A stretch of DNA of 64,000 nt, from positions 32,975-96,974 of the forward strand of contig CAZMQI010000003.1 of the NCBI GenBank assembly GCA_964568585.1, in the 5' to 3' direction. A program made the translations under genes and the position numbers. The notes beneath the pieces were generated by a model. That model was not told the DNA's origin and ran no database searches. It was given only the letters and a program-made list of their open reading frames with translations. Each line of letters starts with the position of its first letter. Position 1 is the first letter of the stretch. This document shows positions 28,441 through 51,197 of this stretch, piece by piece. Source of the DNA: an uncultured Rhodospirillales bacterium. GTDB lineage: Bacteria > Pseudomonadota > Alphaproteobacteria > UBA9219 > RGZA01.

Positions 28441-31182
28441 TTAAGCAGCCATCATGCCGCGTAGCACGAAGGGTAGAATACCGCCATTGGCGTAGTATTC
28501 GACTTCATCCGCGGTATCGATGCGGCATTTAAGCGGGATTTGACGGTCTTGCGTTCCAGCTTTCGAGATGGTCAGGAATAATTCCATCCCCGCCTTCAAA
28601 CCTTTTTCGATACCGATGATGGATAAATCTTCCGAACCATCCAGTTTCAAATCAGCACGGGTCATGCCGTTCTTGAATTCAAGCGGCAACACGCCCATAC
28701 CCACCAAATTGCTGCGGTGAATACGTTCAAAGCTTTCGGCGATTACAGCGCGCACGCCCAGCAGCTTGGTGCCTTTGGCGGCCCAATCGCGGCTAGAACC
28801 CGTGCCGTATTCTTTACCAGCAATAATCATCAATGGAACATTGGCGGCGATATAACGCATTGCTGCATCATAAATCGGCATGGTCTCTCCTGTTGGCAGA
28901 TATTTGGTAATACCGCCTTCGGTGCCCGGCAATAATTCATTCTTGATACGAATATTGGCGAATGTACCTCGCATCATGATTTCGTGATTACCACGGCGTG
29001 CACCGTACGAATTGAAATCTTCCTTGGTCACTTTGTGTTCGACCAGATATGCGCCTGCTGGGCTTTTAATCGTGATGTCGCCTGCGGGGGAGATGTGGTC
29101 GGTGGTGATGCTATCTGCAAATACCGCTAATGGTTTTGCGCGCAAAATATCCATCACCTTGGTTGGTTGTTTCTGCATGCCTTCGAAAAGTGGCGGATGT
29201 TTTACGTATGTTGAAATTGGATCCCATTGATAGGTAAGACCCGTTGCGGTCTTCACTTTTTGCCATTCTTCTGGGCCTTTGAACACATCGGCGTAGCGGT
29301 CATGGAACATTTTGGGTGTCAGGCATTTTTCAACGGTTTGTGCAACCTCGGCATTGCTTGGCCAAATATCTTTCAAGAATACCGGCTTGCCATCGCGGCC
29401 TGTGCCGATGGGATCTTTTTCAAAATCAATCGTCACGGTTCCAGTCAATGCATACACAACGCAAAGTGGTGGTGATGCAAGATAATTCGCTTTTGTTTGC
29501 GGGTTCACGCGGCCTTCGAAATTGCGGTTGCCGGAAAGCACGGCGGCAACAGCCAAGTTACCCTTGGTAATCGCAGCCGACACAGCTTCAGGGAGCGGGC
29601 CGGAATTACCGATGCAGGTTGTGCATCCATATCCCACCAAATTAAATCCAAGCATATCCAGCGGCATATCAAGGCCAGCGGCATGCAGATAATCGGTCAC
29701 GACTTGGCTGCCCGGTGCAAGCGAAGTCTTCACCCATGGCTTGACGGTCAATCCTTTCTCAACGGCTTTTTTCGCAACAAGGCCAGCTGCAACCATCACG
29801 CTGGGGTTTGATGTATTGGTGCATGATGTGATGGCGGCAATAACAACGTCACCATGGGTGACGGTGTAATCGGTACCTTCGACTTGGGTCTTCGTATTAC
29901 GTGCATCGCCTTCGATTTTGTATTTCTTCAAATCGTCTTCAAACGCTGCGGCAACCTTTGATAATGCAACGCGGTCTTGTGGCAAGCGCGGGCCAGCAAG
30001 GGATGGTTCAACCGTTGATAAATCAAGCTCCAGCGTATCGGTGAATTCCGGATCTGGTGTGGTTGCATCGCGCCACATGCCTTGTTCCTTGGCATATGCT
30101 TCCACCAAAGCAACACGGTCAGCATCACGGCAGGTGAAGTTCAAATAGCGAATGGTTTCTGCATCAATCGGGAAGATACCGCATGTCGCGCCGTATTCTG
30201 GCGCCATGTTGGCAATCGTCGCGCGGTCGGCAAGTGGAAGGGTATCAAGGCCAGGGCCAAAGAATTCAACGAATTTATTCACCACGCCTTTTTTACGCAG
30301 CATGTTGGTAACCGTCAGTACCAAGTCGGTTGCGGTGCAACCTTCTTTCAATTTGCCTTTCAATTTAAATCCGATAACTTCGGGAATAAGCATCGATGTC
30401 GGTTGGCCAAGCATGCATGCTTCTGCTTCAATACCGCCAACGCCCCAACCCAACACGCCAAGTCCGTTGACCATGGTGGTGTGGCTGTCGGTACCAACAA
30501 GCGTATCAGGATATGCAATCATCTTGCCGGTTTGGTCCTTATCGGTCCAAACAACTTGGGCAAGATATTCAACGTTTACTTGGTGGCAAATGCCAGTGCC
30601 CGGTGGAACCACGCGGAAATTTTCAAATGCTTGTTGGCCCCAACGTAGGAACGCATACCGTTCGCCGTTACGTTCGAATTCTTTGGCAACGTTATATGCA
30701 AATGCATTCTTGTCGCCGAATTTATCAACCATCACCGAGTGATCGATGACCAAATCAACGGCGCATAACGGGTTGACCGATTCAACATTGCCGCCAAAAC
30801 TTTTCACAGCTTCACGCATCGCAGCCAAATCCACCACGGCTGGAACGCCAGTGAAATCCTGCATCAGCACGCGCGCAGGACGGTATGCGATTTCGCGGTC
30901 ACTCTTTTTAGTTTTGATCCATTCGGCAATCGCCTTAATGTCATCCACGTTCACGGTGGTGCCGTTTTCAAAACGCAGCAAATTTTCCAAAAGGATTTTC
31001 AACGAATAGGGAAGGCCAGCGAGGCTGCCGATTTTTTGTTCAGCCGCTTTCAGACTGTAATAGTCATAGGTTTTGCCATTGGCAGTGAGAGTGCGGCGTG
31101 TAGCCAGCGTGTCATTTCCAGTGCGAAGAGCCATGAGAGAGCAACCTTTTGATGAGTGAGAGGCGGGATAATGAAGCCTCAC
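28441..31182 (-). CDS. acnA: Aconitate hydratase A
   Basis: 913 aa. Fe-S cluster cysteine motifs (ITSCTNTSNP and GCTTCIGNSG) and the aconitase swivel domain. An alternative start lies at 31134. Confidence 0.95.
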   Translation of the reverse strand: MRLHYPASHSSKGCSLMALRTGNDTLATRRTLTANGKTYDYYSLKAAEQKIGSLAGLPYSLKILLENLLRFENGTTVNVDDIKAIAEWIKTKKSDREIAYRPARVLMQDFTGVPAVVDLAAMREAVKSFGGNVESVNPLCAVDLVIDHSVMVDKFGDKNAFAYNVAKEFERNGERYAFLRWGQQAFENFRVVPPGTGICHQVNVEYLAQVVWTDKDQTGKMIAYPDTLVGTDSHTTMVNGLGVLGWGVGGIEAEACMLGQPTSMLIPEVIGFKLKGKLKEGCTATDLVLTVTNMLRKKGVVNKFVEFFGPGLDTLPLADRATIANMAPEYGATCGIFPIDAETIRYLNFTCRDADRVALVEAYAKEQGMWRDATTPDPEFTDTLELDLSTVEPSLAGPRLPQDRVALSKVAAAFEDDLKKYKIEGDARNTKTQVEGTDYTVTHGDVVIAAITSCTNTSNPSVMVAAGLVAKKAVEKGLTVKPWVKTSLAPGSQVVTDYLHAAGLDMPLDMLGFNLVGYGCTTCIGNSGPLPEAVSAAITKGNLAVAAVLSGNRNFEGRVNPQTKANYLASPPLCVVYALTGTVTIDFEKDPIGTGRDGKPVFLKDIWPSNAEVAQTVEKCLTPKMFHDRYADVFKGPEEWQKVKTATGLTYQWDPISTYVKHPPLFEGMQKQPTKVMDILRAKPLAVFADSITTDHISPAGDITIKSPAGAYLVEHKVTKEDFNSYGARRGNHEIMMRGTFANIRIKNELLPGTEGGITKYLPTGETMPIYDAAMRYIAANVPLMIIAGKEYGTGSSRDWAAKGTKLLGVRAVIAESFERIHRSNLVGMGVLPLEFKNGMTRADLKLDGSEDLSIIGIEKGLKAGMELFLTISKAGTQDRQIPLKCRIDTADEVEYYANGGILPFVLRGMMAA

Positions 31183-31423
31183 ATATAGTAGACGCGCGTT
31201 AAAGAGAGGTGAACGCCCGGCATATCGCTATGAAATCACTGGCATTCGTTCCGTTTGCGGTATTTGCAACTTCAGGCTGAAACCTTTTTAGGAATCTATT
31301 GCAGTATTAGTTTCAATGGCCTATATGAGTACTGCAACTGAATAGAAGGTTTTTAATTGCATGGCCGCTGCTGGCGATCCAGAAGACAATAATGATGGCG
31401 GGTTTCGCAACACCCAGCCAACC

Positions 31424-31825
31424 ATGACTCTTTCCTGGACAGAGCAGGATGAGATTTTGACCAACCTTTGGTCAAAGGGCGAAAAACCAGAATCAATCGC
31501 TGTTACGTTGAACCGTTCAGTTGCCGCCGTAATGACCAGAGCGGCGCGTCTTGGACTGCAGCGTCGTTTCGCACCCGGACGCAAGCCCAAGAAAACAGGT
31601 GATGCTGAAACTGGTCTTGCCAATCTTCGTAATGCCGCACGCCTTTCTGCACAATTGCAAACCACACCCGCACAGCTATCACACCGTATTTGTTTGATGT
31701 GTTTAAGCCGTTTCCAATCGCAGGGACGCCATAATCGCATTTGTGGCAATTGCAAAGGCTCACCTGAATATCGTTCCGCAGCCGGATTGCCAGATGTCGA
31801 CGTTTCATCGGGCGGCGGCGTCTAA
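31424..31825 (+). CDS. GcrA-family cell-cycle regulator-like protein
   Basis: N-terminus MTLSWTEQDEILTNLWSKGEKPESIAVTLNRSVAAVMTRAARLGL matches the GcrA DNA-binding domain. The C-terminus CLMCLSRF...RICGNC resembles the GcrA Cys-containing tail. The ORF is open from 31361. Confidence 0.6.
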   Translation: MTLSWTEQDEILTNLWSKGEKPESIAVTLNRSVAAVMTRAARLGLQRRFAPGRKPKKTGDAETGLANLRNAARLSAQLQTTPAQLSHRICLMCLSRFQSQGRHNRICGNCKGSPEYRSAAGLPDVDVSSGGGV

Positions 31826-31883
31826 TTAAGACGCAATTTACTCCTTAAGTTTTCTTAAACGAACCATCGCTAACTTTATTCAT

Positions 31884-32540
31884 ATGAATAAACAAGATGC
31901 CGTTCAAACCGTTTTAATCCGTAATAGTTTTTACCGCGACGGGTATCGTTCGCTGCTGAAAGTCGCGCTTGTGCAGGGCGGCGTCATCATCGCGCTGATT
32001 GCCGCGATTGTGTATCTCGTTTTAGCCAGCGATGTGAAGCATGTGTTTTTTGCGACCAACGTTGATGGCCGCATCATGCCGATTGAACCAATCGCCGAGC
32101 CATACTTCCAGGATGACCAGGTCATCACATGGGTTGCGAAAACCGCACGCGAAGTTATGCAGATGGATTATCTCAATTATCGTACCTCGTTGGATAAAGC
32201 GAACAGCAAGTTCACACAAGCAGGTCGTATCGACTTCCACGCTGCGCTTAAAGACAGCCGTTTGATTGAAGCGATTGAGAAGAACAAGCTGGTCGTTCAA
32301 TTGAAAGTTGAAGGTGCGCCGCAAATCTTGAAGAAGGCCATCACGAAGGAAGGCGCGTATGTGTGGTTCCTCTCCATGCCGATCAGCATCGTGTATGACG
32401 GACAAGATCCACCGCAACCATTCCACGGAAAACTACAAGTACGCGTTGACCGTATCGACTTCCTTGAAAACCCCGATGGTATCGCATTCGGCCAATGGGT
32501 AGTGGGCGAAGAAAATATCCTCAATCGTGTACAAAAGTAA
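31884..32540 (+). CDS. T4BSS inner-membrane component, DotI/IcmL (TraM)-like
   Basis: 218 aa with a single N-terminal TM helix and a periplasmic domain. It is first in a gene order matching icmL-K-E-G-C-D-J-B. Confidence 0.5.
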   Translation: MNKQDAVQTVLIRNSFYRDGYRSLLKVALVQGGVIIALIAAIVYLVLASDVKHVFFATNVDGRIMPIEPIAEPYFQDDQVITWVAKTAREVMQMDYLNYRTSLDKANSKFTQAGRIDFHAALKDSRLIEAIEKNKLVVQLKVEGAPQILKKAITKEGAYVWFLSMPISIVYDGQDPPQPFHGKLQVRVDRIDFLENPDGIAFGQWVVGEENILNRVQK

Positions 32541-32582
32541 TTCTGGCAAAAGTAATTTTGGCAAAAATAATCTGGATTAGTC

Positions 32583-33263
32583 ATGGCAACAAAACGGCCA
32601 ACTACCGCCATTAAACCCGAACAGGTTTATAAGGTTGTGTTTCATCCATCCGAACCAGCGCCGGTTGGTTCATCGGCGCAGTTCCGTTTCGCCAGAGGGC
32701 TGGTGACGATTTTATCATACATCATCGCGATGCTCGTCTTCTGCGTGTTCATGGTATTCTTCATGTTCGCGGATACATATTTCTATCACTTCAGCGTGCT
32801 TGATCGTGAACGCATTCCCGAGCGGCTAGTGACGATGCATCCACTAGATAATCCGAACTTGACGCGTACGGGCATCACCAACATGGCGATGAATATTGCG
32901 ACAGAAGTATTGACCTTTGGCTTCAATAACGCCGATGAACGCTTGCTGAAATCTCGCCGCCTGTTTACCGAAGCTGCGTGGCTGCGTTTTGCCAAGGCAT
33001 ATCTTAAGGAAGGCCGTCTTGATAAAATCAAGCTCAACCAGCAAGTGCTGACCAACATCGCAAGAGATAATGCGGTGATTGTGGAAGAGGGCAAGAATTC
33101 ATCTGGCGAACTGCAATGGGTCGTACAGGTTCCAACTATTACAACTTACCAAGCCGGTAAAAAAATCGTGCCGGTCCGAAGTGTCCTGCAGATCACGCTC
33201 ATCAAGGCATCGACCCTTGAGCATCCCGAAGGTGTTGCAATTGATGGTTGGGAACAACTGTAA
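32583..33263 (+). CDS. Paralogous DotI/IcmL-like (or DotJ/IcmM-like) membrane protein
   Basis: 226 aa with the same architecture as the upstream gene (TM helix plus a periplasmic domain of similar length). Confidence 0.45.
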   Translation: MATKRPTTAIKPEQVYKVVFHPSEPAPVGSSAQFRFARGLVTILSYIIAMLVFCVFMVFFMFADTYFYHFSVLDRERIPERLVTMHPLDNPNLTRTGITNMAMNIATEVLTFGFNNADERLLKSRRLFTEAAWLRFAKAYLKEGRLDKIKLNQQVLTNIARDNAVIVEEGKNSSGELQWVVQVPTITTYQAGKKIVPVRSVLQITLIKASTLEHPEGVAIDGWEQL

Positions 33264-33473
33264 GGTTCCGCATCGCGCCCAAATCACCTAGAAACTATCC
33301 GGCAAATCACCCCGCAAATCAGGGCCCAACTCGGGCATCTTTACTTCTCGTTAACTTCCCAGTCCCTACTCTAACCGTGTTTGATTCTTTCCTGCCATAG
33401 GGGCAAGAAAAATAGAATCTAACGCCGGTTGAAGCATTGACGGGAGTCTTGAAGAAGATTCTAGTGAAAACAG

Positions 33474-34799
33474 ATGACGATTCGTGACCTCAAATCATTG
33501 ATAGGTAGACCTTTACGGCATTTAGCCGTTTCGGGCGGCGTACTCCTTGTGACATTACTATGCACAGGGATTTCCACAGCTTATGCACAGACCATTTTGC
33601 CTGCCGCGCTGATGGCAACATCTTCCCCTGCGATATTGCCCCCTCCATCAACATCTCAGGCAACATCCCCGACATTATCAATGGAAGCAAATCTTGCGCC
33701 GCCTGCAATGGAAGCGCCTGCGCTCGCTCATCCTGCTTTAGCAATGCCGATTGCATCTGAATCAACCGCGCCACTTCCAACCTCTACGACGACAACCACC
33801 ACTACAACTACCGATGCACCTCCGCCACTTACCATTTCAACGGATACTACACCGCCACCTGCGCCACCAACTGAAGCGCTTGGAAGAACCGCAAGCGTGG
33901 ATCGTCCTGCATCCAGCGTGATGCCACTTGATCCACCGCCCTTGCCGCAAGAAAGCCGTTTGGACAATGCCATCCGTAATGAAGCTGAACGTTCATTCTA
34001 CGATGCCAAAAAACAAAAATATCAATCAACGTTTGAACGCGCTTACGAAGGACTTGTTCCGCTAGGCCCAAATGAAGTGCGCGATACGATGAGCCGTTAT
34101 GAACGCACGCAGCGCGCATCCGTTCCACCATCTACGGGACAGCCACGCGGCCAAGTCCGCATCAAAACATTATCGCTGGAACCTGGTTCTGAACCACCCA
34201 CCATCAATATTTCGTCGGGTTATGTAACGACGATTACGATTTTGGATGCAACGGGCGAGCCATGGCCCATTCTTGATTTAGGGATTGGCGGAAATTTTGA
34301 AGTGAGCAAAACAGGCGGCGGTAATCACGTTATCCGCGTGATGCCACTGACACGTTTTGGTTATGGTAATCTGTCGGTCTTGTTACAGGATTTATCAACG
34401 CCGATTATTTTCAAGCTGGCTTCCGGTGGCGCAACGGTGGATTACCGTTTTGACGCACGCGTTCCGCGTCTTGGCCCCAACGCCAAACTATCGCTGATTG
34501 ATAAGAAGAACAGATTACAAGCGGGCTCAGCCGACATCATGGGGTTCCTTGATAACGCACCGCCGCCCGAAGCAAAGCGCGTTCGCATCAATGGCGCAGA
34601 CTCTCGCACCATGGCATGGACGGTAGATCGCCGCATGTTCGTGCGTACACCGCTCACCATGTTATCGCCATCTTGGGATTCCAGTGTGTCATCCGCGGAT
34701 GGCACCACGGTATATGAATTAACTGAAACGCCCGTCCTTATTATGTCTGATAATGGTGTGCTGGTACGCGCAAGAGTGGCACCCAAGGAAGAAGAATAG
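33474..34799 (+). CDS. DotH/IcmK (TraN)-like outer-membrane-associated T4BSS core protein
   Basis: Signal peptide, then a Pro/Thr/Ala-rich linker (including a run of 10 Thr), then a C-terminal beta-rich domain of about 250 aa. It follows the icmL-like genes. Confidence 0.45.
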   Translation: MTIRDLKSLIGRPLRHLAVSGGVLLVTLLCTGISTAYAQTILPAALMATSSPAILPPPSTSQATSPTLSMEANLAPPAMEAPALAHPALAMPIASESTAPLPTSTTTTTTTTTDAPPPLTISTDTTPPPAPPTEALGRTASVDRPASSVMPLDPPPLPQESRLDNAIRNEAERSFYDAKKQKYQSTFERAYEGLVPLGPNEVRDTMSRYERTQRASVPPSTGQPRGQVRIKTLSLEPGSEPPTINISSGYVTTITILDATGEPWPILDLGIGGNFEVSKTGGGNHVIRVMPLTRFGYGNLSVLLQDLSTPIIFKLASGGATVDYRFDARVPRLGPNAKLSLIDKKNRLQAGSADIMGFLDNAPPPEAKRVRINGADSRTMAWTVDRRMFVRTPLTMLSPSWDSSVSSADGTTVYELTETPVLIMSDNGVLVRARVAPKEEE

Positions 34800-34801
34800 T
34801 C

Positions 34802-36178
34802 ATGACCAACAACAACGCAGATGATTTTGATCAGGATTTTTCGGACGCAACGGTACAACGTGCGCCTGCTGCAAAGCCAACTATGGCGAACAACATCGCC
34901 GCTGCGTGGCAAGGCAGCCCGTTGTTCAAAATGTTTGTGTTGGTGGTGATTGTTGGTGCACTCGCTGCTGCTGCCATCGCGATTTTCTCCGGCAATGAAA
35001 AGGATATTCCTGGTTCATCCGTGCGTTCCGCTCCCGGGTTGACCGAAGCACCAGGTGCCAAAGCGCCGCCAGCTTATGTGGATGCTGTGAACGACGCATC
35101 CGTCAAACGTGCGGAAGAAGCATTGCAACAAGGCAAGAGCGCCATTCCAACGCCTGTGTCGGGCGATGAAACAAAAGCGGGTCTTGGCGATCAAGGTGAT
35201 GAATCGCAATATGATCCTTTGGCAGAATTCCGTCCCAATACTCCGCAAGATGCAGCGCCATCCGAGCAGCAAGACCAAACACCTGTTGAAACCATCGACA
35301 GCGAATTGCTGAGCAAGATGCAATCGCAAATGACCAATTTGTTTGATAGCTGGCGTCCGGCTGGAATTAAAACCATACAGATTCAAGAAATGTCAGCGCG
35401 GCAAGCGACACCGGTTTCAACCACCACCCAGCAGAATGCAAAAACCCTTGTTGCATCGGGTAGCATTTATTACGGCGAAATGTTGATGGAAGCGAATTCC
35501 GATGCGCCTGGCCCGATTGTCGCACAGATTCTATCAGGTCCGTTTGCGGGTGGCCGCGCGATTGGCGCGTTTGAGGTTACACGCGAATACCTGATCATCC
35601 GTTTCACAAAGATCAGCTACAAGAAAAAAGACTATGCAGCTGATATTCTTGCGGTTGACCCGAATACAACCTTGGGCGCACTGGTAACCGAAAAAGATAA
35701 CCGATATTTTACGCGCGTTCTTTTGCCGGCAGCTGCGGCATTCCTTGAAGGGTTCGGTCAGGCATTAGGCACACCATCCAATAGTATTATCAGCAATGAT
35801 GGTCAGACAGTCGTATTGCAGCAATCCAAACAGGGTGTTGAAGACGGGCTCTATCGTGGTCTTGCGGAAGGTGCAACGACCGTTGGTGGTTTCTTCAGGG
35901 ATGAAGCAGCCGCAACCAAACCGCTTATTCGCGTTGCTGTCGGAACGCCGATGGGACTATTTTTTGTGAATGCAGTAACCGACGGGAACCAGAACGGTCG
36001 TAGTGCGAATGTGATTGAAACCCCAATTCAGACACAAGTGCAGCAACCGCCGCCGACTTTTTCCTCATCGGGCGCCTTAATTAATGACAATACCATCCCA
36101 AATACAGGATTAACCACGGTTCCCGCTTCATCTCTTGCGAACAGTGGTGTCAACATTATACAATCCGGTACCAAATAA
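34802..36178 (+). CDS. DotG/IcmE (TraO)-like T4BSS core protein with a VirB10/TrbI-like C-terminal domain
   Basis: 458 aa. N-terminal TM helix, Pro-rich periplasmic linker, and a C-terminal VirB10-type region (FTKISYKKKDY...). Short compared with Legionella DotG and lacks repeats. Confidence 0.55.
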   Translation: MTNNNADDFDQDFSDATVQRAPAAKPTMANNIAAAWQGSPLFKMFVLVVIVGALAAAAIAIFSGNEKDIPGSSVRSAPGLTEAPGAKAPPAYVDAVNDASVKRAEEALQQGKSAIPTPVSGDETKAGLGDQGDESQYDPLAEFRPNTPQDAAPSEQQDQTPVETIDSELLSKMQSQMTNLFDSWRPAGIKTIQIQEMSARQATPVSTTTQQNAKTLVASGSIYYGEMLMEANSDAPGPIVAQILSGPFAGGRAIGAFEVTREYLIIRFTKISYKKKDYAADILAVDPNTTLGALVTEKDNRYFTRVLLPAAAAFLEGFGQALGTPSNSIISNDGQTVVLQQSKQGVEDGLYRGLAEGATTVGGFFRDEAAATKPLIRVAVGTPMGLFFVNAVTDGNQNGRSANVIETPIQTQVQQPPPTFSSSGALINDNTIPNTGLTTVPASSLANSGVNIIQSGTK

Positions 36179-37587: not shown

Positions 37588-37800
37588 ACCGTTTTCGTCA
37601 TTCCTCAGAATAATAGTAAGATATGGTTAATGATTTTTAACCAATGGGAATTTCTTCCTTTGAAATCAAAGAAAGAAAGTAATTTTTTATATACTTTTAA
37701 TGAATCCTTGGAATACTCGGATGATGGGGAAAAGCCTTTTACTGTCATCCAATCATATGGGATGTAATCCATGGGGTTGGGTTGTTTTAGGATATTGCGA

Positions 37801-38790
37801 ATGAAGCATGCCAAGAAACAAAACCGCCTGTTCAGTTTCATTTCTGGAGTTGATGTGACGCGCTTACTTTTGGCTGCGCTCATTGTAATTTTATATCCGA
37901 CATCGGGGTTTGCACAAACAATAGATCCGAATAATGGAACAACGGTTGGAAGCATGTTCTGCAATGTCTTGCAGAACTCCGGTTCGTTCCCGCCACTTTT
38001 TTCAGGCATAGCTTACATCACCGGCGCATGGATTGTGGTGCGCGGTCTATTCGATATGATGAAGCGCAGTTCCGATCCGACCAATAAGCCATTTAAAGAT
38101 GGTATTCTTGGCGTGATGATGGGCGGTATGGTGGCATCACTTCCAAACCTCATCAACTGGCTGCATAAATCACTTCTACGTGACACTGTAAAAGGTGACG
38201 GCATCCGTTGCTCGGCCGCAGAATCGGTAGCCACCGATAGTGCTGTTCCGCTTGACGTGATGCTCAGCAATTTCGTTGGCAATATCACCCCTGGCATCCT
38301 TGCGCTGATTAGCGGCATGGCGGTAATCTTTGGTATTGTGATGATTTTCTATAACATGGTGAAGCTGTCGAAATTCGGTTCTGACGCTAAAACCAGCACA
38401 CTGACACCCATCATCGGCAGCTTGATTATCGGTGCGCTTTTGGTCGCGGTTGGTCAAACCATGGATGTGAGCTTAAGCACCATCTTTGGTAACAACACGT
38501 CGATGACGACGCTGACAAAATATTCAGGCGTGGCCTATGTGCCTGGCGGCAGTTTTGATATGACGCGTTTCAATAATGCGATGTCGGCAGTGTTCACATT
38601 CCTTCGAATCGTCGGCAGTTTGAGTTTTGTGCGTGGATTCTTCGTGATGAAGAATGCATTGGAAGGACAAGGGCAGGCGACCAAGGGTCAGGCCTATACC
38701 CATATCATCGGTGGCGCGCTGTTGGTGAACATGCCAGCTTTTATCCAATACATCGAACAGTCAGTCGGGTTCAAAGTTTTGGCTGGCTAA
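37801..38790 (+). CDS. Polytopic membrane protein with signal peptide, at the DotE/IcmC (TraQ) position
   Basis: About 330 aa with at least 5 hydrophobic helices. Start chosen at the Met at 37801, which gives a signal-like N-terminus. Confidence 0.4.
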   Translation: MKHAKKQNRLFSFISGVDVTRLLLAALIVILYPTSGFAQTIDPNNGTTVGSMFCNVLQNSGSFPPLFSGIAYITGAWIVVRGLFDMMKRSSDPTNKPFKDGILGVMMGGMVASLPNLINWLHKSLLRDTVKGDGIRCSAAESVATDSAVPLDVMLSNFVGNITPGILALISGMAVIFGIVMIFYNMVKLSKFGSDAKTSTLTPIIGSLIIGALLVAVGQTMDVSLSTIFGNNTSMTTLTKYSGVAYVPGGSFDMTRFNNAMSAVFTFLRIVGSLSFVRGFFVMKNALEGQGQATKGQAYTHIIGGALLVNMPAFIQYIEQSVGFKVLAG

Positions 38791-38959
38791 AAAAAACCAA
38801 ATTTTTGAAATAGGATGGTTAATAAAGGGTAAATAGGTAAACCTTTATACAATTTTTAATAATTGCTTTGTTATTATTACTTACATCCAAAGGCCATAAT
38901 TTTTGTTACACTGAGTTGTTCATCAGTAAATGATGTAAGTTTTTGAAGGAAACTTAGGA

Positions 38960-39844: not shown

Positions 39845-40576
39845 ATGTCCCTCCTCCCGATTACGCTGGGCGTCAAGCGCAACCTTGATGCCCAGCAATC
39901 CGGAGCAGCCGGTAAACCAAAACGTCGCAAACCACTTTCGAAGTCTGAGCTTTCTAAACTCGTCCAACACACCTTCGAAAAAGATTCCTTCACCTGCTGC
40001 TACTGCGGATTCAAAGCTAAACAATTTCAAAAGGCGATACCCAAAGATTGGGCGGTAACTGACCCGCGCGATTCTGAAATGGTCACCGCATGCATTTTCT
40101 GCGAGCAATGCTTTGCGCTAGAAACTGTGGGTCCTATGGCGTCCGGCACGCTCATCTGGCTTCCCGAAATCAGCCAGGCTGCGCTGCATCACATCATGCG
40201 CGCCGTCTATGCCTCACGCGCACAAATGGATATTGCGCCAGATAACATCAAAAATTGTGCCGACCGGACATTCGAAGTCCTGTTTAACCGCAGAGGTGAA
40301 GCCAAACGCCGTATCGGTACCGATGACCCGATGGTTTTGGCTGCTGCCTTACTTGAAAATGTGACCGAAGAAACGTTTCGAGGCCGCGAAGATAAATTCA
40401 GTGGGATTCGCCTAATGCCGCTGGATAAACGCATGATCCCAAGTGCTTCCGGCAAAGATAACGATCAATTCCCGCGGATTATCGAATATTGGGTCTCTGA
40501 TGAAGGGCCTTTAGGCAAGATGCCCCCAGCCACTTGGGAAGCCATGCAACTCGGCATTACCAAAGTTGCCAGCTAA
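39845..40576 (+). CDS. DotN/IcmJ (TraT)-like cysteine-rich Zn-binding T4BSS protein
   Basis: Motifs CCYCGFK and CIFCEQC. Located immediately upstream of the DotO/IcmB ATPase, as in Legionella. Confidence 0.6.
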   Translation: MSLLPITLGVKRNLDAQQSGAAGKPKRRKPLSKSELSKLVQHTFEKDSFTCCYCGFKAKQFQKAIPKDWAVTDPRDSEMVTACIFCEQCFALETVGPMASGTLIWLPEISQAALHHIMRAVYASRAQMDIAPDNIKNCADRTFEVLFNRRGEAKRRIGTDDPMVLAAALLENVTEETFRGREDKFSGIRLMPLDKRMIPSASGKDNDQFPRIIEYWVSDEGPLGKMPPATWEAMQLGITKVAS

Positions 40577-40711: not shown

Positions 40712-43700
40712 TTGCACCGCATGCTGGGTTTTCTAGACGAATTTTTTGCCGGAATCTTGCTGCTGTTTAAGCAGCCGGTGGAATCGTTCATCAATCTTGA
40801 AACGGCCGATGATGATACGACGCTGGTATCCAATGATGGATCATTGCTGAGTTATTTGAAAATCAGTGGCGCGCGCCAGATGATTGGCGGCGAAGAATAT
40901 AACTGGATTATCGATCAGGCAACGTTGAAGCTTGGTGCGCGTTTCGATCGCCCCGGCCAAGCGATGCAATTCTATTTCTACCGCGATCCTGACCGTATTG
41001 GCCGCACGCTGCACAAGATGATGACGCCGAACCGTATGTCGGCAGCAGCGATAGGTATTGATCTGGATGATTTGCTCAAAGAACGTCAGCGCAATCTTTC
41101 AAATTATTTGGCGCTTGAAGAAATGTATCTGGTGCTGTGGACGCGTCCATCAGGCTTAACACCGAATGAATACAAACGCGCGCAAGAAACCCGCAAGGAT
41201 GTGAAATGGCATGCGGCAAAAAATGCACAAATGCCATTTGCCGCGCTTGAACCATTGCGGTTGAAGCACAAAGCGTTTGTATCGAACATCTCTGAATCAC
41301 TGTTCGAGCTTGGCATCGTTTCCAACGTAATGGAAGTACATGATGCATTGCGTGCGGTGCGTGCCAGCATCTATCCAAATCTGGATAACGATAAATGGAA
41401 AGCATGTTTGCCCGGCGACCCGATTGCGCCGCGCCGCCCACGTTATAAACGCGATTGGTCAGATTTGTTATGGCCGCCGATTTCACAACAGCTTTGCCCG
41501 ATGGATGCCGAAGTACTCGGCCCTAGCACGGTGCGTGTTGGTGATTTGGCATGGGCGGCAACCGACATGTCGCTTGGACCATCCGATGCGTCACCATTTC
41601 CGCAATTACTCAACCGCTTAATCGAAGCGAACATGCCATTCCGCATTTCGTTCATGATTGAAAGCGGCGGCGTGACGGGTGAAAATTTCCGTAAGCTTGC
41701 GGCGTCATTGCTCGCATTTTCCAACGGCATCAATCGCCAGATTAAAGATACGTTGAACGAGTTGATTGCGTTGTCGCAAAGTGATCCGGTTGTAAAACTC
41801 AGAATCTCCTATGCGACCTATGCGCCTGCGGGCGATAAAAAACTCATCGAAACGCGCCTTGCGAATTTAATGCAAGCCGCCGAATCATGGGGCTATTGTC
41901 AGGTTGCGAATATCTGCGGCGATCCGCTCGAAGCGGTGATGTCGTCCGTGCTTGGTATTTCGTGTTCCGCAACGGCGCCCCCCGGTGTTGCACCACTTCG
42001 TGAAGTTGTGAAGATGTTGCCATGGCAACGGTCATGTTCACCGTTCAATGATGGTGCGGTGATTTTGCGTTCCCCTGATGGTCGAATCTGGCCATACCAG
42101 ATGGGTACGGCGTTGACTACCACATGGTTCGATTTGATTTTCGCACAACCTGGTTCTGGTAAATCGGTTCTCATGAACGCGAAAAATCTTGGCTGCTGTT
42201 TATCAGCAGGTATGAGCAAATTGCCGTTCATCGCCATCCTTGATATTGGCCCATCATCATCAGGGCTAATCTCGCTACTTAAAGATGCATTGCCTGCTGA
42301 CCGCCGCCAAGAAGTTCTGCATTTCAAATTATTGATGACACCGGAATATGCGGTGAACCCGTTTGATACGCAGCTCGGTTGCCGTTACGCATTGCCCGAT
42401 GAACGCGCCTATCTTTGTGAACTTCTCACATTAATTTGCACACCGCCAGGTCAAGACACGCCCTATGACGGTATGACACAGCTAGTTGGGTTTTGCGTTG
42501 ATGAAATGTACCGTTGGCGCGATGATGCGGAAGCGAATGCCGAAGCACGCCCATATTTGGAACTCATCGAACCGCGCGTGGATGATGCCATCAAGAAAAT
42601 GAATTTGGTGCTGCCACCTGAACCCTATTGGTGGGAAGTGGTGGATGCGCTGTATGATGCCGGTGCAAAACATGAAGCAATGCTAGCGCAACGCCATGCT
42701 GTCCCGACCTTGGTGGATGCTGTTACTGCTGCGCGCCGCCCGCAAATTAGAGCATTCTTGGATGAAACCGCCATCGGCCCCAGCGCAGAAGGTGTTATCC
42801 ATGCGTTTGAACGTATGATTGCATCGGCTATTCGTGAGTTTCCAATTCTTGCTGGCGTAACGCGGTTCGATACCGGTACGGCGCGCGTGGCATCGGTAGA
42901 TTTACAGGAAGTATCCCCGCAAGGCGATGCATCCGCTGACCGTCAAACCGCTATTATGTACATGCTTGCACGCCATACACTTATTCGTGCGTGGTGGCTC
43001 AATCCCGATAGCCTTCGTAACGTAACCCCGCGTTATCGTCCGCATCATGACGAACGTTTGAAAGAAATTCGCGAAATTCCAAAACGTCTTTGCTATGACG
43101 AATTCCATCGTACCGCGAACAGTTTTGCTGTGCGCGCGCAGCTCATCCGCGACGTGCGCGAAGGCCGTAAATGGGGTGTACAAATCGTCCTTGCATCCCA
43201 ATTGCTTAATGACTTCACCGCAGACATGATTGATTTGGCGACGGGTATCTGGGTGTGCGGTTCAACCGCATCGGAACGCGCGATTAATGATTTGGGCGAA
43301 AAATTCTCCCTTTCCGAAACAGCACGCTGGGTTGTGCGTTATCGTTTGACGGGTCCAAAGCCGAGCGGTTCGCCCGTATTGCTAATTCTGTCAACGACCG
43401 AAGGTCGCTATGAGCAGCATCTTGTGAACACCCTTGGCCCGATTGAGTTATGGGCACTGTCCACATCTGCCGAAGACGTGGTTATCCGTAGCAAGCTGTA
43501 TGAAAAGGTAGGGGCAACCAAGGCGCGACGACTTTTAGCAACCCTATTCCCCGGCGGTACCGCCCGCCATGAAATCCGCCGCCGCGTGGTCATCCGTACC
43601 GAACGCGGTGAACTAACCACCAACGCCCAACAGGCCGTTATGCAGGAAATGGTGGATGAATTAGCAGCTTATGTGACCAGAGAGGTGCTGGACGGCGTGC

Positions 43701-43816
43701 TTGAAGTTGAAAAACGCGCAGCCGCCGAAAAGGCCAAGGAAGCCGAAGCAAATAAAGTTACTAAAAAACGTGATTTTTCGGGTTCAAGTTCGCGTGCATC
43801 CGGCACGCCCCGCTAA
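40712..43816 (+). CDS. DotO/IcmB (TraU)-like T4BSS ATPase
   Basis: 1034 aa (Legionella IcmB is about 1009 aa). Walker A motif AQPGSGKS. Confidence 0.8.
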   Translation: MHRMLGFLDEFFAGILLLFKQPVESFINLETADDDTTLVSNDGSLLSYLKISGARQMIGGEEYNWIIDQATLKLGARFDRPGQAMQFYFYRDPDRIGRTLHKMMTPNRMSAAAIGIDLDDLLKERQRNLSNYLALEEMYLVLWTRPSGLTPNEYKRAQETRKDVKWHAAKNAQMPFAALEPLRLKHKAFVSNISESLFELGIVSNVMEVHDALRAVRASIYPNLDNDKWKACLPGDPIAPRRPRYKRDWSDLLWPPISQQLCPMDAEVLGPSTVRVGDLAWAATDMSLGPSDASPFPQLLNRLIEANMPFRISFMIESGGVTGENFRKLAASLLAFSNGINRQIKDTLNELIALSQSDPVVKLRISYATYAPAGDKKLIETRLANLMQAAESWGYCQVANICGDPLEAVMSSVLGISCSATAPPGVAPLREVVKMLPWQRSCSPFNDGAVILRSPDGRIWPYQMGTALTTTWFDLIFAQPGSGKSVLMNAKNLGCCLSAGMSKLPFIAILDIGPSSSGLISLLKDALPADRRQEVLHFKLLMTPEYAVNPFDTQLGCRYALPDERAYLCELLTLICTPPGQDTPYDGMTQLVGFCVDEMYRWRDDAEANAEARPYLELIEPRVDDAIKKMNLVLPPEPYWWEVVDALYDAGAKHEAMLAQRHAVPTLVDAVTAARRPQIRAFLDETAIGPSAEGVIHAFERMIASAIREFPILAGVTRFDTGTARVASVDLQEVSPQGDASADRQTAIMYMLARHTLIRAWWLNPDSLRNVTPRYRPHHDERLKEIREIPKRLCYDEFHRTANSFAVRAQLIRDVREGRKWGVQIVLASQLLNDFTADMIDLATGIWVCGSTASERAINDLGEKFSLSETARWVVRYRLTGPKPSGSPVLLILSTTEGRYEQHLVNTLGPIELWALSTSAEDVVIRSKLYEKVGATKARRLLATLFPGGTARHEIRRRVVIRTERGELTTNAQQAVMQEMVDELAAYVTREVLDGVLEVEKRAAAEKAKEAEANKVTKKRDFSGSSSRASGTPR

Positions 43817-43864: not shown

Positions 43865-45085
43865 ATGGCTCAACAACCCAAAGCAGATGATGTAGAAATC
43901 ACAATGGTGCTGATTGTCGCCATGGGATTCCTATTCATGTGGGGATTATGGTCGTATGCCAAGCAGCCGATGGTCGAAGCCATCCGCTGGGTAAAGTGGA
44001 CAGAAGTTTCCGTGTTTCAATTGATTGATCCGAAATTGGCACGTGACCGCGAACTTCTGGAAACATTAAAGAACGATCAAGCGCTCATCAAACAGATGAG
44101 CGAAGAAATGGATTTACAAAAAAAGAAATACACCGTCGAAGGATGGATTGCTAACAAACTGCTGGCGCCGGAAGTATTGTGGGATATTTCGAACCGTGTG
44201 GGTGTTTATTCGCGCGTGCCGATTATCATGGGATTGATGGCGGGCGCAATTTTTTATATGTTCTTCTCGTTCCGCACAAAATACAAAACCGCCTATGATC
44301 TGGAAGGGCTTATCCGTATCCAGTCAAAACAATGGCCTGTTATATCGCCAATTGAAAACTTCAGCCCGACGGATGCGAATGCGCGCAAACCCGGCGAGCC
44401 GGTTCCTGCTGATTTACCGTTGTTTTCCGAAGCATTATCACCTGAAGAATGGGTCGCGCATCAGCGCATTCCCATCGTCAATAAAATCCCTGATAAGGAT
44501 GCATTGCGCCGCGCCTATCTGGCGCAGCTAGGCCCGCGCTGGACTGGCATGAGTTGTATGACACCTGCACAACGTTGTCTGATGGCATCTTTTGCATTAA
44601 AGGGCGCACAAAAACGCCGCGACAGCGATAACCTTTTGGGACGCGTGGCGACGCACTGGAACCATAAAACGGATTTCACGCCTTCCGTCGAATTGATGGC
44701 TGAGGTTGATAAGGTGCTTGCCGATCCAAAAGTTGGCGGCGAGGCGATGAAGGTGGCTAGCCGTTTTGCGTATCGCACCACGGCGTTGATTGGCGTGTTG
44801 AAATGGGCGCGTGAACGTGGCGGTGTGCTTGCACCGGCAACCTTTATCTGGCTGCGCGGTCATGACCGCGCATTATGGTATCCACTCAATAATTTTGGTC
44901 GCAGAGCGTATCATGCCGAAGCTGCTGGCGCGATGGCGCATTTCATGGCTGAAAAAATCGCCGGAAAACCATTACCCATTCCGCGCTTGGAAACAGCCAT
45001 TCTTACCATTACCCAATACTGGGGCATTAATAATCCTGTGGTTCCACCGCTTGAAGAAAACACCAAAAAAATCACTAAAACATAA
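43865..45085 (+). CDS. DotM/IcmP (TrbA)-like inner-membrane protein
   Basis: 406 aa with two N-terminal TM helices and a cytoplasmic domain. Sits upstream of the coupling protein. Confidence 0.4.
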   Translation: MAQQPKADDVEITMVLIVAMGFLFMWGLWSYAKQPMVEAIRWVKWTEVSVFQLIDPKLARDRELLETLKNDQALIKQMSEEMDLQKKKYTVEGWIANKLLAPEVLWDISNRVGVYSRVPIIMGLMAGAIFYMFFSFRTKYKTAYDLEGLIRIQSKQWPVISPIENFSPTDANARKPGEPVPADLPLFSEALSPEEWVAHQRIPIVNKIPDKDALRRAYLAQLGPRWTGMSCMTPAQRCLMASFALKGAQKRRDSDNLLGRVATHWNHKTDFTPSVELMAEVDKVLADPKVGGEAMKVASRFAYRTTALIGVLKWARERGGVLAPATFIWLRGHDRALWYPLNNFGRRAYHAEAAGAMAHFMAEKIAGKPLPIPRLETAILTITQYWGINNPVVPPLEENTKKITKT

Positions 45086-45627: not shown

Positions 45628-48108
45628 ATGGCCGTCATCCCCGTAAAATACCGAGTTCATCGATCGCGGCGCTACCGCGATGCACGCCCCACGGGCGAGC
45701 GTATTGCCGAGTCCATGGGTTCGACAAATACCATCAGCTATGTGTATTTCTCGCTCGCGATGGCGATGATTATTCTGCCGATGGTGGGCTTGAACTTTGC
45801 ATTGGCAATTGCCGATGTACTGGCAGTGGTGGCGTGGCTTTATGCACGCTGGTTCAACGCGCAGAAGTTTAGTCTGCCGCTCAAGATGCCATCTTATTCC
45901 GAACGCAAGGATCCTAAAAATCCTATTCCAGGTACCGACGGTGTCGCAGGAAAATCGGAAGGTATTCTGTTTCTTGGCAACGAACGCGATCCGAAGACGG
46001 GTAAGGAATTATGGCTGACGAACAGCGATGCGCGCACCCATACATTATTCCTTGGTACAACGGGTACCGGTAAAACCGAAGGTTTGAAATCGCTGGTTAG
46101 CAATGCGCTGAGTTGGGGTTCGGGCTTCGTATATGTGGATGGTAAAGCCGATACCGATTTGTGGGCAGGTCTGTACGGTTTGGCGCGCCGCTTTGGCCGC
46201 GAAGATGATTTGCTTGTTCTGAATTATATTACTGGTAACTCCGATGATGCGTCGGTTTCCAATACGATGAATCCGTTCGCCAATGGCTCATCCTCCTTCC
46301 TTTCCAATATGATCACCAGTTTGATGCCGGATGCTGGCGGCGATAACGCGATGTGGAAAGAGCGTGCGGTGGCGCTCATGTTCGCGTTGATGCCTGCGCT
46401 AACCTTCAAGCGCGATAAGCAAGGCCTGCTGATGGATATCGGCACGGTGCGTGAATTCATCGAGTTGAAGCCGATTGTGCGCCTATCACGCGATACGACG
46501 ATGCCGGAACGCATCATCCGTGGTTTGCAGGGCTATCTATCAACCTTGCCAGGTTACGTGGATGAAGCATTTGATGATGATGGTAATGAAAAACCACCAA
46601 GCCCCGATGCGCCGATGTACGATTTGCAGATTGCGCGTCAGCAGCACGGCTATCTCTCAATGCAGTTTACCCGCGCGTTCCAATCGCTCGCTGATGAATA
46701 TGGTTTTATCTTTAGAGCGCAGCTTGCCGATATTGATACCATCGACGTGGTGTTGAACCGCCGCATGCTGATCGGTCTTATCCCGTCACTTGAAAAGTCA
46801 GGCGATGAAGCGGCGAACTTGGGTAAAATCATCGCCGCATCCTTGAAGGGCATGATGGGTTCTACCCTTGGCGCGTCCGTGGAAGGTTCGTGGGAAGATA
46901 CGATTGAAAGCAAGCAGACACGCTCGCCATCACCTTACATGACCGTATTCGACGAAGTCGGTTACTATACCGCGCAAGGTATGGCGGTGATGGCCGCGCA
47001 GGCTCGTTCGCTCGGCTTCGCTCTTGTGTTTGCCGCGCAGGATATTCCCGCGATGGAAAAGCGCGTGAAGCAGGAAGCTCACTCCATCTTGGGTAACTGC
47101 AACTTGAAAATTTTCGGTAAACTCGAAGATCCTTTGGAAACCAAAAAGTTCTTCGATGACCATGTGGGAACCGTGTGGCTTTATGAAAGTACCGGTTTTA
47201 ATGCGCCGACCAATTTGATGTCGTCATTCTTCGTCAACAACCCCTACATTGATAACCGTCAAACGGGTACCTTGCAGGAACGTAAACGTACCAACTATGA
47301 CTGGCTACGCGAAATGCGCGAAGGTCAGGTCATCATGATGTTCCACGATTTCATCGTCTCAGCTCAGTTATTCCATGCCGAACCTAAAAAAGTCAGGGCG
47401 ATGCGGGTGCAACGTTTGCTTCCTGTCCCCGGCTTTACTACCAGCACGCAGGCCAAGGAACGTATGGTGGCTGATTTATCGCGCAAACTGGATGATCCGG
47501 AATGGATTGCGGCAAAGGCGATGTCACCAGCACAAGTGCAACCGGAGATTAAAGCACTTAGCGTTGGTTATGAAACGGCGCAAGCAGCAGGCCTTGATCC
47601 GATTAAATCGGCAATGGCGGCTCTTGCCGGACTATCCGAACTTGCTGAAAAAGCCAAAGAAGAAGAAAAGGCCAGCGGTGGGTCGGGTCGCGGCAAAATC
47701 AATATGGACGAGCTGGATAATGTAGAGGAAGTGCAGCAGCAAGAACAAGCCGCGCAACCACAACAGCAACGCATGCAAATAGCGCCATCTTACCAAGACC
47801 CAGATACAGTCCAGGCCCAATACAATACTGATAATGGCAGCGGTAACGGCCAGCAGACCAATACGCGCGCAGGCTTTGGAGATGATTTTGATTATCGTCC
47901 GCGTGCTACCAGCAAGCTCAAGAAGATGGGCGTTGGTCTTGAAGACATCGCAGCCATCAAAGCTAAAGATCTCGTTGGTAAAAACGCAGAAAGCGTTGCG
48001 CTCAAAGACGTGTCGCCTGAAATCGCTGCGCTTCTGCAAAAAGGCGCGCAGAATATTTCACAAACGCTGTTCCACGATGTCCGTGGCACCGGCGGCGATG
48101 CCGAGTGA
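45628..48108 (+). CDS. Type IV coupling protein, DotL/IcmO (TrbC/VirD4 family)
   Basis: 826 aa. N-terminal TM helices and Walker A FLGTTGTGKT. An alternative start lies at 45715. Confidence 0.8.
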   Translation: MAVIPVKYRVHRSRRYRDARPTGERIAESMGSTNTISYVYFSLAMAMIILPMVGLNFALAIADVLAVVAWLYARWFNAQKFSLPLKMPSYSERKDPKNPIPGTDGVAGKSEGILFLGNERDPKTGKELWLTNSDARTHTLFLGTTGTGKTEGLKSLVSNALSWGSGFVYVDGKADTDLWAGLYGLARRFGREDDLLVLNYITGNSDDASVSNTMNPFANGSSSFLSNMITSLMPDAGGDNAMWKERAVALMFALMPALTFKRDKQGLLMDIGTVREFIELKPIVRLSRDTTMPERIIRGLQGYLSTLPGYVDEAFDDDGNEKPPSPDAPMYDLQIARQQHGYLSMQFTRAFQSLADEYGFIFRAQLADIDTIDVVLNRRMLIGLIPSLEKSGDEAANLGKIIAASLKGMMGSTLGASVEGSWEDTIESKQTRSPSPYMTVFDEVGYYTAQGMAVMAAQARSLGFALVFAAQDIPAMEKRVKQEAHSILGNCNLKIFGKLEDPLETKKFFDDHVGTVWLYESTGFNAPTNLMSSFFVNNPYIDNRQTGTLQERKRTNYDWLREMREGQVIMMFHDFIVSAQLFHAEPKKVRAMRVQRLLPVPGFTTSTQAKERMVADLSRKLDDPEWIAAKAMSPAQVQPEIKALSVGYETAQAAGLDPIKSAMAALAGLSELAEKAKEEEKASGGSGRGKINMDELDNVEEVQQQEQAAQPQQQRMQIAPSYQDPDTVQAQYNTDNGSGNGQQTNTRAGFGDDFDYRPRATSKLKKMGVGLEDIAAIKAKDLVGKNAESVALKDVSPEIAALLQKGAQNISQTLFHDVRGTGGDAE

Positions 48109-50613: not shown

Positions 50614-50849
50614 TCCATCACAATATCTGCACATCATTTTGCTTTTCCGGTTACCTTGGTTAAGCAAAAATTACTTTTGCGCGCGCCAATCTGTGCCACA
50701 AACTCATCATATCGATATTGAAATACTCACAGCTATTTCAGGTGTTCCAGCTCGAATCAACGCATGGCGTGATGAAAGTAAATTAAGCCTCTGTTAAGAA
50801 TCTAGGAGCAAATTAGGCTAAATTTATTAAGAATTTTAGGGAGTTTCCT

Positions 50850-51191
50850 ATGCGTATCGATTTTCGCAAGCTTTTAGCAGTTGGAGTATTGGCAGCAATA
50901 TGTGCCATGCCAAGTCATTCCCAAGCTGACACCTATGACCAAGAAGACTTTCAGGGCGCCACCCAAGCCTTTGAGCAAAAAATGAAAGAGCAGGCAGACG
51001 AAAAGATGAAGGACGCCTTCAAGCAAATCAAATGTTACGAAAAACGAATGAATGCCGACGCAGCCAGAAAAAAACAAAAGGAAGCCGGTCAAAAAGGTAC
51101 GCCATTTACACAAGATACATGGCCTGATTTTGAAAGCGCAAAAGGCATGACCGACAAATTGGGCAGCGATTTGTTCGATAAATGCGAATAA
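50850..51191 (+). CDS. Hypothetical small secreted protein
   Basis: Signal peptide LLAVGVLAAICAMPSHSQA, then charged, Lys-rich sequence. Confidence 0.45.
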   Translation: MRIDFRKLLAVGVLAAICAMPSHSQADTYDQEDFQGATQAFEQKMKEQADEKMKDAFKQIKCYEKRMNADAARKKQKEAGQKGTPFTQDTWPDFESAKGMTDKLGSDLFDKCE

Positions 51192-51197
51192 TTTGAT

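Follow-up and report, generated by a model that had tools for sequence, protein, structure and literature searches.

A putative secretion-linked regulator with a GcrA-type DNA-binding head and a C4 zinc ribbon at the front of a Dot/Icm-type locus in Micavibrio-like Alphaproteobacteria

Why should a small gene that resembles the cell-cycle regulator gene gcrA stand at the front of a large secretion locus? The question is raised by a 64,000-nucleotide stretch of contig CAZMQI010000003.1 (hereafter the window) from an uncultured Rhodospirillales bacterium, which carries a Dot/Icm-type type IVB secretion system (T4BSS) and, ahead of it, a gene for a 154-residue protein with a helix-turn-helix (HTH) and a zinc ribbon that we call X (31361 (ATG) to 31825 (stop), forward strand; ORF list and homologues). 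A preliminary description of this DNA had taken X for a GcrA-like, methylation-sensitive factor, which would be either a hijacked or paralogous regulator of a horizontally acquired-looking locus or the core gcrA of the host with an island inserted beside it. As set out below, X shares with GcrA a DNA-binding head, carries a different zinc domain and travels with the dotI genes. We favour the reading that X is a T4BSS-dedicated DNA-binding transcription factor whose gene opens a conserved X-dotI-dotI' operon, and we give it an even chance of being correct.

X is the first gene past acnA (28441-31182, reverse strand), which is transcribed divergently, and it has the direction of every large T4BSS open reading frame (ORF) up to 62797 (forward strand), in agreement with the preliminary description. 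The start given there (31361) was right as well, whereas the end (31883) took in the 58-bp spacer before the first of two DotI/IcmL genes; the reading frame stops at 31825. An identical 154-residue product has been called by independent gene callers in four public assemblies, and a protein search returned 384 homologues at E<=1e-3 (best 2e-91); X is therefore a real, conserved gene. Two antisense ORFs overlapping it on the reverse strand (31321-31755 and 31503-31808) are unsupported and are taken as spurious, and no Rfam family matched in 30900-33700. The protein has neither a transmembrane segment nor a signal peptide. An alignment of 24 family members (A1; 44-88% identity) contains 40 invariant columns, and the family can be recognized by a W-x10-W HTH, the recognition helix RS(V/I)(A/P)A(V/I)MTRAARLGL, an RR-x-APGRK tail, the motif R-x-CLMC-x3-F-x-S-x-G-x-HNRIC-x2-CK and a gene position directly upstream of dotI, all of which X itself shows. 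A C-terminal tail, S-x-LPD-x-D, is also conserved in A1, with D145 nearly invariant.

How much of GcrA is present in X? When compared by hhalign with the Caulobacter crescentus protein alone and with an 11-sequence GcrA alignment, residues 25-74 of X (31433-31582, forward strand) align to GcrA residues 2-53 with a probability of 94-95% (E 1e-7 to 3e-8), and the rest of X is unaligned. A profile of the X family finds the GcrA chains 7ye1_G (E 1e-4) and 5yiu_A (E 4e-3) in the PDB, again over the first ~50-60 residues only. The AlphaFold2 (AF2) model, which like our other structure models of X is moderately confident beyond the cores of the HTH and the ribbon, places helices at residues 26-38, 43-50 and 54-63 with pLDDT of ~90, a three-helix HTH of the GcrA or Myb-like type followed by the basic tail RRFAPGRKP. 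By all three approaches X possesses an N-terminal DNA-binding domain homologous to that of GcrA. A Foldseek search with the modelled HTH returned almost exclusively HTH DNA-binding domains as its top matches, none of them significant. Within the family, overall identity falls to ~45%, yet the recognition helix RSVAAVMTRAARLGL and the RRFAPGRKP tail do not vary (alignment A1).

The recognition surface itself has changed. GcrA contacts the bases and the methyl-adenine through R33, N34, I37, G38, H41 and R42 (PMC5887438), which align to V54, A55, M58, T59, A62 and R63 of X, so that only R42 (R63) is kept; M58, T59, A62 and R63 are invariant across the X family, and W26 (GcrA W3), W37 (W15) and R60 (K39) are retained as well. 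The target sequence of X therefore cannot be inferred from that of GcrA, nor does homology allow a direct methylation-sensitive role to be assigned, five of the six base and N6-methyladenine (m6A) contact residues being different. In addition, X scores 21.2 bits against the Pfam GcrA model (PF07750; gathering cut-off 26.9), matching profile positions 2-85 of 155 only, and 19.4 bits against the NCBIfam equivalog NF050816, 'cell cycle sigma 70 cofactor GcrA' (cut-off 280), and thus falls below both curated thresholds.

The C-terminal part of X is a C4 zinc ribbon, R-x-C111-x2-C114-x13-C128-x2-C131 ... Y137 (residues 109-137; 31685-31771, forward strand), which is indicated by the alignment, by the model and by a match to phrog_13335 (E 2.4e-8; function not assigned in PHROGs). 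The four cysteines and F118, S120, G122, N125 and R126 are all invariant, and the domain is modelled as a beta-hairpin with short helices. The sigma70-interacting domain (SID) at the C terminus of GcrA is, by contrast, a CCCH finger of the form C-X14-C-X9-C-X2-H (PMC5887438), whereas X has C-X2-C-X13-C-X2-C. No SID similarity was detected when the C-terminal alignment of X was compared with the GcrA alignment by hhalign (probability 0.07%), and Foldseek with the C-terminal model found generic zinc ribbons only (E>2), the GcrA entry 5YIX not being returned. Since X is sub-threshold, is homologous in the DNA-binding head only and carries another zinc domain, it does not belong to the GcrA family as defined; the earlier wording 'GcrA-like' holds for the homologous N-terminal domain and fails for the family cut-offs and the missing SID. 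The combination of a GcrA-type DNA-binding domain with a C4 zinc ribbon is best read as an architecture that would be new for a regulator.

Both modules have wider circles of relatives. A search of 1.84 billion representative sequences gave 24 core-family clusters (E<1e-30) and 3692 weaker relatives of X, among them proteins with 2-11 tandem HTH copies. Large members of 300-800 residues (P0141, P0142, P0149, P0154, P0157 and others) consist of 4-11 tandem GcrA-type/Myb-like HTH repeats, and small ones (P0176, P0194, P0214, P0215 and others) carry one to three HTHs followed by the X-type ribbon C-x2-C-x3-F-x-S-x-G-x-(H/G)-N-R-x-C-x2-C. Pfam names their HTHs GcrA (N-terminal part) or Myb-like, some of them passing the Pfam GcrA threshold by this domain alone, and PHROGs files the HTH module as phrog_323, 'transcriptional regulator, D5-like'. 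Together these proteins are an uncharacterized superfamily. Both modules are therefore mobile, and their associates are DNA-binding or regulatory.

If X is not GcrA, to which system does it belong? Scanning one genome per species yielded 72 X loci, 67 of them non-redundant and with downstream sequence; the hosts are all uncultured Alphaproteobacteria, many labelled Micavibrio, 'Bdellovibrionales' (the order in which NCBI places Micavibrio) or Rhodospirillaceae. In 63 of the 67 loci X is followed, in the same direction and at no more than 600 bp, by the start of a dotI pair, and the spacing is very tight, often <30 bp. The four exceptions comprise two interruptions, by an M3-family oligopeptidase gene on the same strand in L041 (10409-12535) and by a gap of the same size in L043; one locus (L046) where dotI is missing and a convergent dotL-like gene lies 850 bp from X; and L070, where the relative is 37% identical, has another recognition helix and sits beside carB, away from T4BSS genes. 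In about 20 loci X, dotI and dotI' stand alone together between unrelated housekeeping genes (for example L004). The reverse test, in which 45 metagenome loci were fetched with a DotH query, found X in 19/19 of those having a dotI pair and enough upstream sequence; four others, one of which shares its contig with an X-dotI locus, represent split systems with dotH but no upstream dotI or X. Of 58 loci, only 10 have an acnA gene whose end lies no more than 1.5 kb from X. Because X is nearly always found with dotI and seldom with acnA, it is part of the dotI/T4BSS module and not of the acnA side or of a core gcrA locus, and its neighbourhood is not that of a core cell-cycle gene placed independently of accessory systems.

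The 58-bp spacer between X and dotI (31826-31883, forward strand) showed no promoter, terminator, GANTC site or CtrA-like box in our motif scans, and the corresponding spacers of other loci lack all tested motifs; X and dotI are therefore probably co-transcribed. A generic sigma70/terminator scan, which reported no more sites than in shuffled sequence, found none in this spacer or in the X promoter. That presumed promoter is the acnA-X intergenic region (31183-31360, forward strand), with a single GANTC (GAATC, 31292-31296) 11 bp upstream of TAGTTTCA (31308-31315); here and below, all promoter assignments are sequence-based. The octamer belongs to a conserved element, TA[CG]TTTCA, which occurs 50-130 bp before X in 34 of 69 loci against 0.67 expected, and the layout GAATC-N9/10-TTA[CG]TTTCAAT is common to the window, L001 and L006-L010. 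In some clades TA[CG]TTTCA and a copy of TGAGTAAT ahead of it make up an imperfect inverted repeat, and in the close clade it also lies ~60 bp upstream of the 39404 gene (window 39343). The regions upstream of X are not GANTC-enriched overall (54 sites, 43.5 expected). They do contain the CtrA-like box TTAA-N7-TTG[AG], in 30 of 69 cases against 0.85 expected.

What signals do the other T4BSS promoters carry? The region before dotH (33264-33483, forward strand) has a CtrA-like TTTA-N7-TTAAC box (33340-33355), a -35-like TTGACG (33437-33442) and five GANTC sites at 33383, 33415, 33444, 33457 and 33479, the first four within the spacer 33264-33473 and the last, CGATTCG, fitting YGAKTCK. Random placement put five sites into 100 bp upstream of or just inside dotH in 4 of 5000 trials (p ~8e-4), yet GANTC is scarce in the window as a whole: there are 84 sites against ~187-250 expected, and no other of the 16 XYNY'X' palindromes is as depleted (observed/expected ratio 0.45 under a maximal-order Markov model). 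In the close clade (window, L001, L006-L009 and L011) the dotH promoter keeps one layout, GAATC, TTGACG-N-GANTC-N8-GATTC-TAGT and an ATG overlapping [CT]GATTCG, though the flanking proteins are only 50-75% identical; L010 keeps the GANTC sites and not the layout. The second GATTC overlaps a -10-like TCTAGT. If the region is read as a sigma70-type promoter, GANTC sites would fall between its -35 and -10 elements and near +10, which are also the zones that GcrA boxes occupy (PMC9976885).

These features extend beyond the close clade. Across all loci the dotH intergenic regions hold 65 GANTC sites against 13.9 expected, T[AT][AT]A-N7-TTAAC is present in 21 of 36 dotH spacers against 0.18 expected, and 26 of 41 loci (~2 expected) have a forward-strand [CT]GATTCG between -49 and +13 relative to the called start of dotH. 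GcrA prefers the consensus TGATTCG (PMC4647560). In many loci, however, this site reads as ATG-ATT-CGN (Met-Ile-Arg) or possibly CTG-ATT-CGN, so part of its conservation may be coding. A purely coding origin was considered and rejected as the sole cause, because the element also occurs at -10 and -18, out of frame with the called start, and because the codons used are invariably ATT and CGN; the caveat stands all the same. In L018, L019, L023, L048, L050, L051, L059 and L064 the DotH Met-Ile-Arg is written CTG-ATT-CGN and the next in-frame ATG, GTG or TTG comes several codons later; translation may therefore begin at a non-canonical CTG/ATT codon, or TGATTCG may be a conserved element that is not translated.

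Elsewhere in the block the signals are uneven. The spacer 37588-37770 has one GANTC, a TTAA-N7-TTGA at 37697 and TTAACCAT at 37623 (reverse strand); 38791-38959 has no GANTC, with TTAACCAT at 38815 and TTTA-N7-TTAAC at 38818 (both reverse strand); and similar CtrA-like boxes with TTAACCAT recur upstream of the homologues of the genes at 37771, 38960 and 39404. In 50614-51460 two GANTC sites flank a perfect TTAA-N7-TTAA at 50783, which is the one that lies in the T4BSS block among the five perfect boxes of the window (4625, 7322, 22818, 50783 and 63704), all outside listed ORFs of >=120 residues. GANTC is absent from 53147-53394, occurs once in 59046-59206 and five times in 55888-56402, upstream of dotD, where three sites cluster (56280, 56291 and 56337) and two more (56035 and 56145) fall within a 94-residue ORF (55916-56200). 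The T4BSS promoters, where the preliminary description had proposed to look for GANTC and CtrA sites, thus do carry GANTC clusters (before dotH and dotD) and CtrA-like boxes (before dotH and elsewhere, across loci). The boxes suggest that the T4BSS belongs to a CtrA-like regulon, and together with GANTC/[CT]GATTCG they suggest that it is also wired to the CcrM/GcrA/CtrA cell-cycle circuit; the GANTC sites are more likely to be read by a canonical GcrA, should these genomes have one, than by X.

What, then, might X do? As a T4BSS-dedicated transcription factor, it would bind promoter DNA with its N-terminal three-helix HTH, the basic linker and the C4 ribbon would provide a second contact, with RNA polymerase, with X itself or with another partner, and X would autoregulate its own operon and/or drive other T4BSS operons. 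What the analysis shows is the domain architecture, a homology confined to the head, the near-obligate company of dotI and the conserved cis-elements before X and dotH; the DNA binding, the target sites and the ribbon contact are inferred. Several lines of evidence speak for this reading: the homology and model of the DNA-binding head with its invariant recognition helix and tail; the regulatory labels of its PHROG and Pfam relatives; the GcrA-like layout of a protein that is neither membrane-bound nor exported; the position at the head of an operon with a motif-free spacer; the linkage in 63/67 and 19/19 loci; and the motifs over-represented upstream of X and dotH. For the same reason of linkage, a T4BSS-dedicated GcrA-related regulator is the better of the two options first put forward for this gene, although the methylation part of that proposal is doubtful. 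Several observations weigh against a transcriptional role. No operator shared by all T4BSS promoters has been identified: TA[CG]TTTCA, the strongest motif upstream of X, is rare at the other T4BSS promoters, and a position weight matrix of the X-upstream motif run over the window gave no clear T4BSS regulon. X is tied to dotI/dotI' specifically, even where dotH-dotG and the rest lie elsewhere, which also fits a partner of the DotI/DotJ inner-membrane complex. CtrA and a canonical GcrA can explain the boxes and GANTC sites without X, and fold searches with the X models gave no significant match.

The alternative that survives best, and that we regard as possible if clearly less probable, is that X is a non-transcriptional accessory of the T4BSS: a cytoplasmic partner of the DotI/DotI' subcomplex in the inner membrane, a nucleic-acid-binding or substrate-recruiting leftover of an IncI-type conjugative ancestor, or a translocated substrate. 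It would account for the persistence of X beside dotI/dotI' in the roughly 20 loci that contain only these genes and in split systems, as well as for the tight spacing; the S-x-LPD-x-D tail with its nearly invariant D145 could be a peptide docking motif, and type IVb pilus genes and an IncI-like TraQ gene (see below) show a conjugative ancestry. Both modules of X are nevertheless typical of DNA-binding regulators, no relaxase or other DNA-transfer gene was recognized among the proteins of the block by Pfam/NCBIfam annotation, and no Legionella Dot/Icm component has the X architecture (PMC11338181).

A second alternative, which we consider improbable, would make X itself the reader of m6A-GANTC ([CT]GATTCG) at T4BSS promoters, tethered to RNA polymerase by its zinc domain, so that the T4BSS would be timed by replication or CcrM stage; this corresponds to the hijacked or paralogous regulator of the preliminary description. 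The promoters speak for it, with GANTC depleted in the window yet clustered at dotH, the GcrA-preferred [CT]GATTCG at the 5' end of dotH and sites placed in GcrA-used zones of the predicted promoter, as does the retention in X of R63, R60, W26 and W37. Despite this support we rate it low because the pocket residues are lost: R33, N34, I37, G38 and H41 are replaced by V, A, M, T and A, and in GcrA the bulky pocket-filling designs R33W, I37W and G38Y/W in most cases weakened the in vitro activation of promoters that were methylated (PMC5887438). Moreover, the own promoter of X is not GANTC-enriched, the strong GANTC cluster is limited to the closer clade while the recognition helix of X is the same everywhere, the conservation of TGATTCG may be partly coding, and the ribbon is unlike the GcrA SID. 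A bolder version, in our view a little less probable still, would have X as a second, independently evolved, RNA-polymerase-tethered monomeric activator with a GcrA head and a new zinc-ribbon anchor, which reads [CT]GATTCG/GANTC and licenses Dot/Icm-type assembly to a CcrM/CtrA point of the cell cycle in a Micavibrio-like, possibly predatory or host-dependent, host.

That X is the core GcrA orthologue of this organism, a sigma70 cofactor with the T4BSS or an inserted island next to it by chance, is very improbable: although its best Pfam and NCBIfam matches are to GcrA and tblastn queries with the whole C. crescentus GcrA and with just its SID found only X itself in the window and ~1.2 Mb of related loci (a protein search with the same query returned Caulobacterales sequences only, which were used for the profile comparison), X lies below both curated thresholds, has no CCCH SID and differs at five of six DNA-contact residues, it goes with dotI (63/67) far more than with acnA (10/58), also where acnA and the other T4BSS genes are elsewhere, and the relative found away from T4BSS genes (L070) has a different recognition helix.

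How did the secretion system itself come to be here? All genes of the block lie on the forward strand. X is followed by two tandem DotI/IcmL genes (31884-32540 and 32583-33263; PF11393, E 1e-37 and 4e-27), dotH/icmK (33474-34799; PF12293, E 7e-72) and a dotG/icmE-like gene (34802-36178; TrbI and the NCBIfam DotG model, E 7e-34). The remaining co-directional part (36229-62797), annotated with Pfam/NCBIfam, encodes a TraQ/DotE-like protein (37771-38790), IcmJ/DotN (39845-40576), a putative DotO of 1034 residues that is so named from position and size only, with a weak VirB4 match (40712-43816), DotM (43865-45085), a DotL-like type IV coupling protein (45628-48108), DotD (56403-56981), DotC of the TraI family (56938-57864) and DotB (57843-59045); the unannotated 94-residue ORF before dotD encodes a small hydrophobic protein. 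With DotC, DotD, DotH, DotG, the DotI family, the DotB ATPase, a DotL-like coupling protein, DotM and DotN, this is a Dot/Icm-type T4BSS. After dotB come a TcpQ-like gene (59765-61120) and a PilN-family secretin gene (61124-62797), a type IVb pilus pair as in the IncI1 thin pilus, and these pilus genes and the TraQ-like gene (37771) point to an IncI-conjugation-like ancestry of the block.

Contrary to what had been supposed, the locus does not look recently acquired. GC content is flat across the window (0.45-0.51), and the left 31 kb is housekeeping, with genes for IMPDH, RsmB, RpoN, HPF, PtsN, LptABC, KdsD, PanC, FTHFS and cytochrome bc1 and with acnA (the labels FTHFS, cytochrome bc1 and acnA come from the ORF list and from Pfam labels of syntenic L001 genes). 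The rpoN-hpf-ptsN cluster (9786-11288 to 8277, reverse strand) lies downstream of lptC-lptA-lptB, the usual proteobacterial arrangement. The order X-dotI-dotI-dotH-dotG, in some loci with acnA upstream, is kept at only ~50% protein identity. Taken together, the flat GC, the housekeeping flank and this synteny make the T4BSS look ancestral and not recently acquired, and it has apparently been passed on by vertical descent through a large Micavibrio-like radiation of uncultured Alphaproteobacteria. Carriers of the conserved complete system (loci L001-L122) include complete chromosomes of 1.6-1.9 Mb. The genome paper on M. aeruginosavorus ARL-13 reported no type IV secretion system (PMC3189940), and our literature searches on T4BSS or GcrA in Micavibrio/Micavibrionales found nothing relevant. 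This apparently undescribed Micavibrio-like T4BSS, with its cell-cycle-type promoter signals, is at least as interesting as X; X and the GANTC/CtrA-type promoter signals together offer a concrete and testable link from the cell-cycle circuit of Alphaproteobacteria to a secretion machine.

How does X compare with the regulators already known? GcrA of C. crescentus (PF07750; PDB 5YIV, 5Z7I, 5YIX and 7YE1), a cell-cycle cofactor that contacts region 2 of sigma70 in monomeric form and switches on methylated promoters, is the closest. Both proteins are small (173 residues in GcrA) and confined to Alphaproteobacteria, and both join a homologous three-helix DNA-binding domain (38% identity over 50 residues, with W3, W15, a K39-like residue and R42 conserved) through a basic unstructured linker to a small C-terminal zinc domain. 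They differ in the replaced contact residues and sub-threshold scores of X, in its CxxC-X13-CxxC ribbon, which has no sequence or detectable fold likeness to the CCCH SID, and in genomic setting, X lying in a secretion-system operon whereas GcrA is a stand-alone core gene. The DNA-binding head of GcrA thus appears as a reusable module that can be joined to a different zinc domain, and X-family proteins should not be annotated with the name GcrA; 'T4BSS-linked GcrA-DBD/zinc-ribbon protein' (DBD, DNA-binding domain) would be better. The multi-repeat and HTH-plus-ribbon proteins of the superfamily share the HTH module (1 to 11 copies) and some of them the same ribbon, yet they do not conserve the helix RSVAAVMTRAARLGL, and no T4BSS linkage is known for any of them. 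Like FlhC of the flagellar master regulator FlhDC, X is small and has a Cys4 zinc site, and its putative DNA binding and control of a large envelope apparatus would parallel those of FlhC. FlhC chains were among the weak Foldseek matches of both X models (E 0.3-8, none significant); the sequences are not similar, and FlhC acts as a hetero-oligomer with FlhD.

The Dot/Icm regulators of Legionella and Coxiella (PmrA, CpxR and LetA/RsmYZ/CsrA) share with X its presumed job, the control of T4BSS expression. Those are global regulators of the two-component or post-transcriptional kind whose genes lie outside the dot/icm loci, whereas X is unrelated to them in sequence and stands at the head of a dot operon. 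To our knowledge, Dot/Icm-type systems have been studied almost only in Legionellales, and we know of no regulator inside the apparatus operons there; in the large, uncultured Micavibrio-like radiation, by contrast, the chromosomal and apparently ancestral T4BSS comes with a conserved HTH/zinc-ribbon protein encoded within one of its operons.

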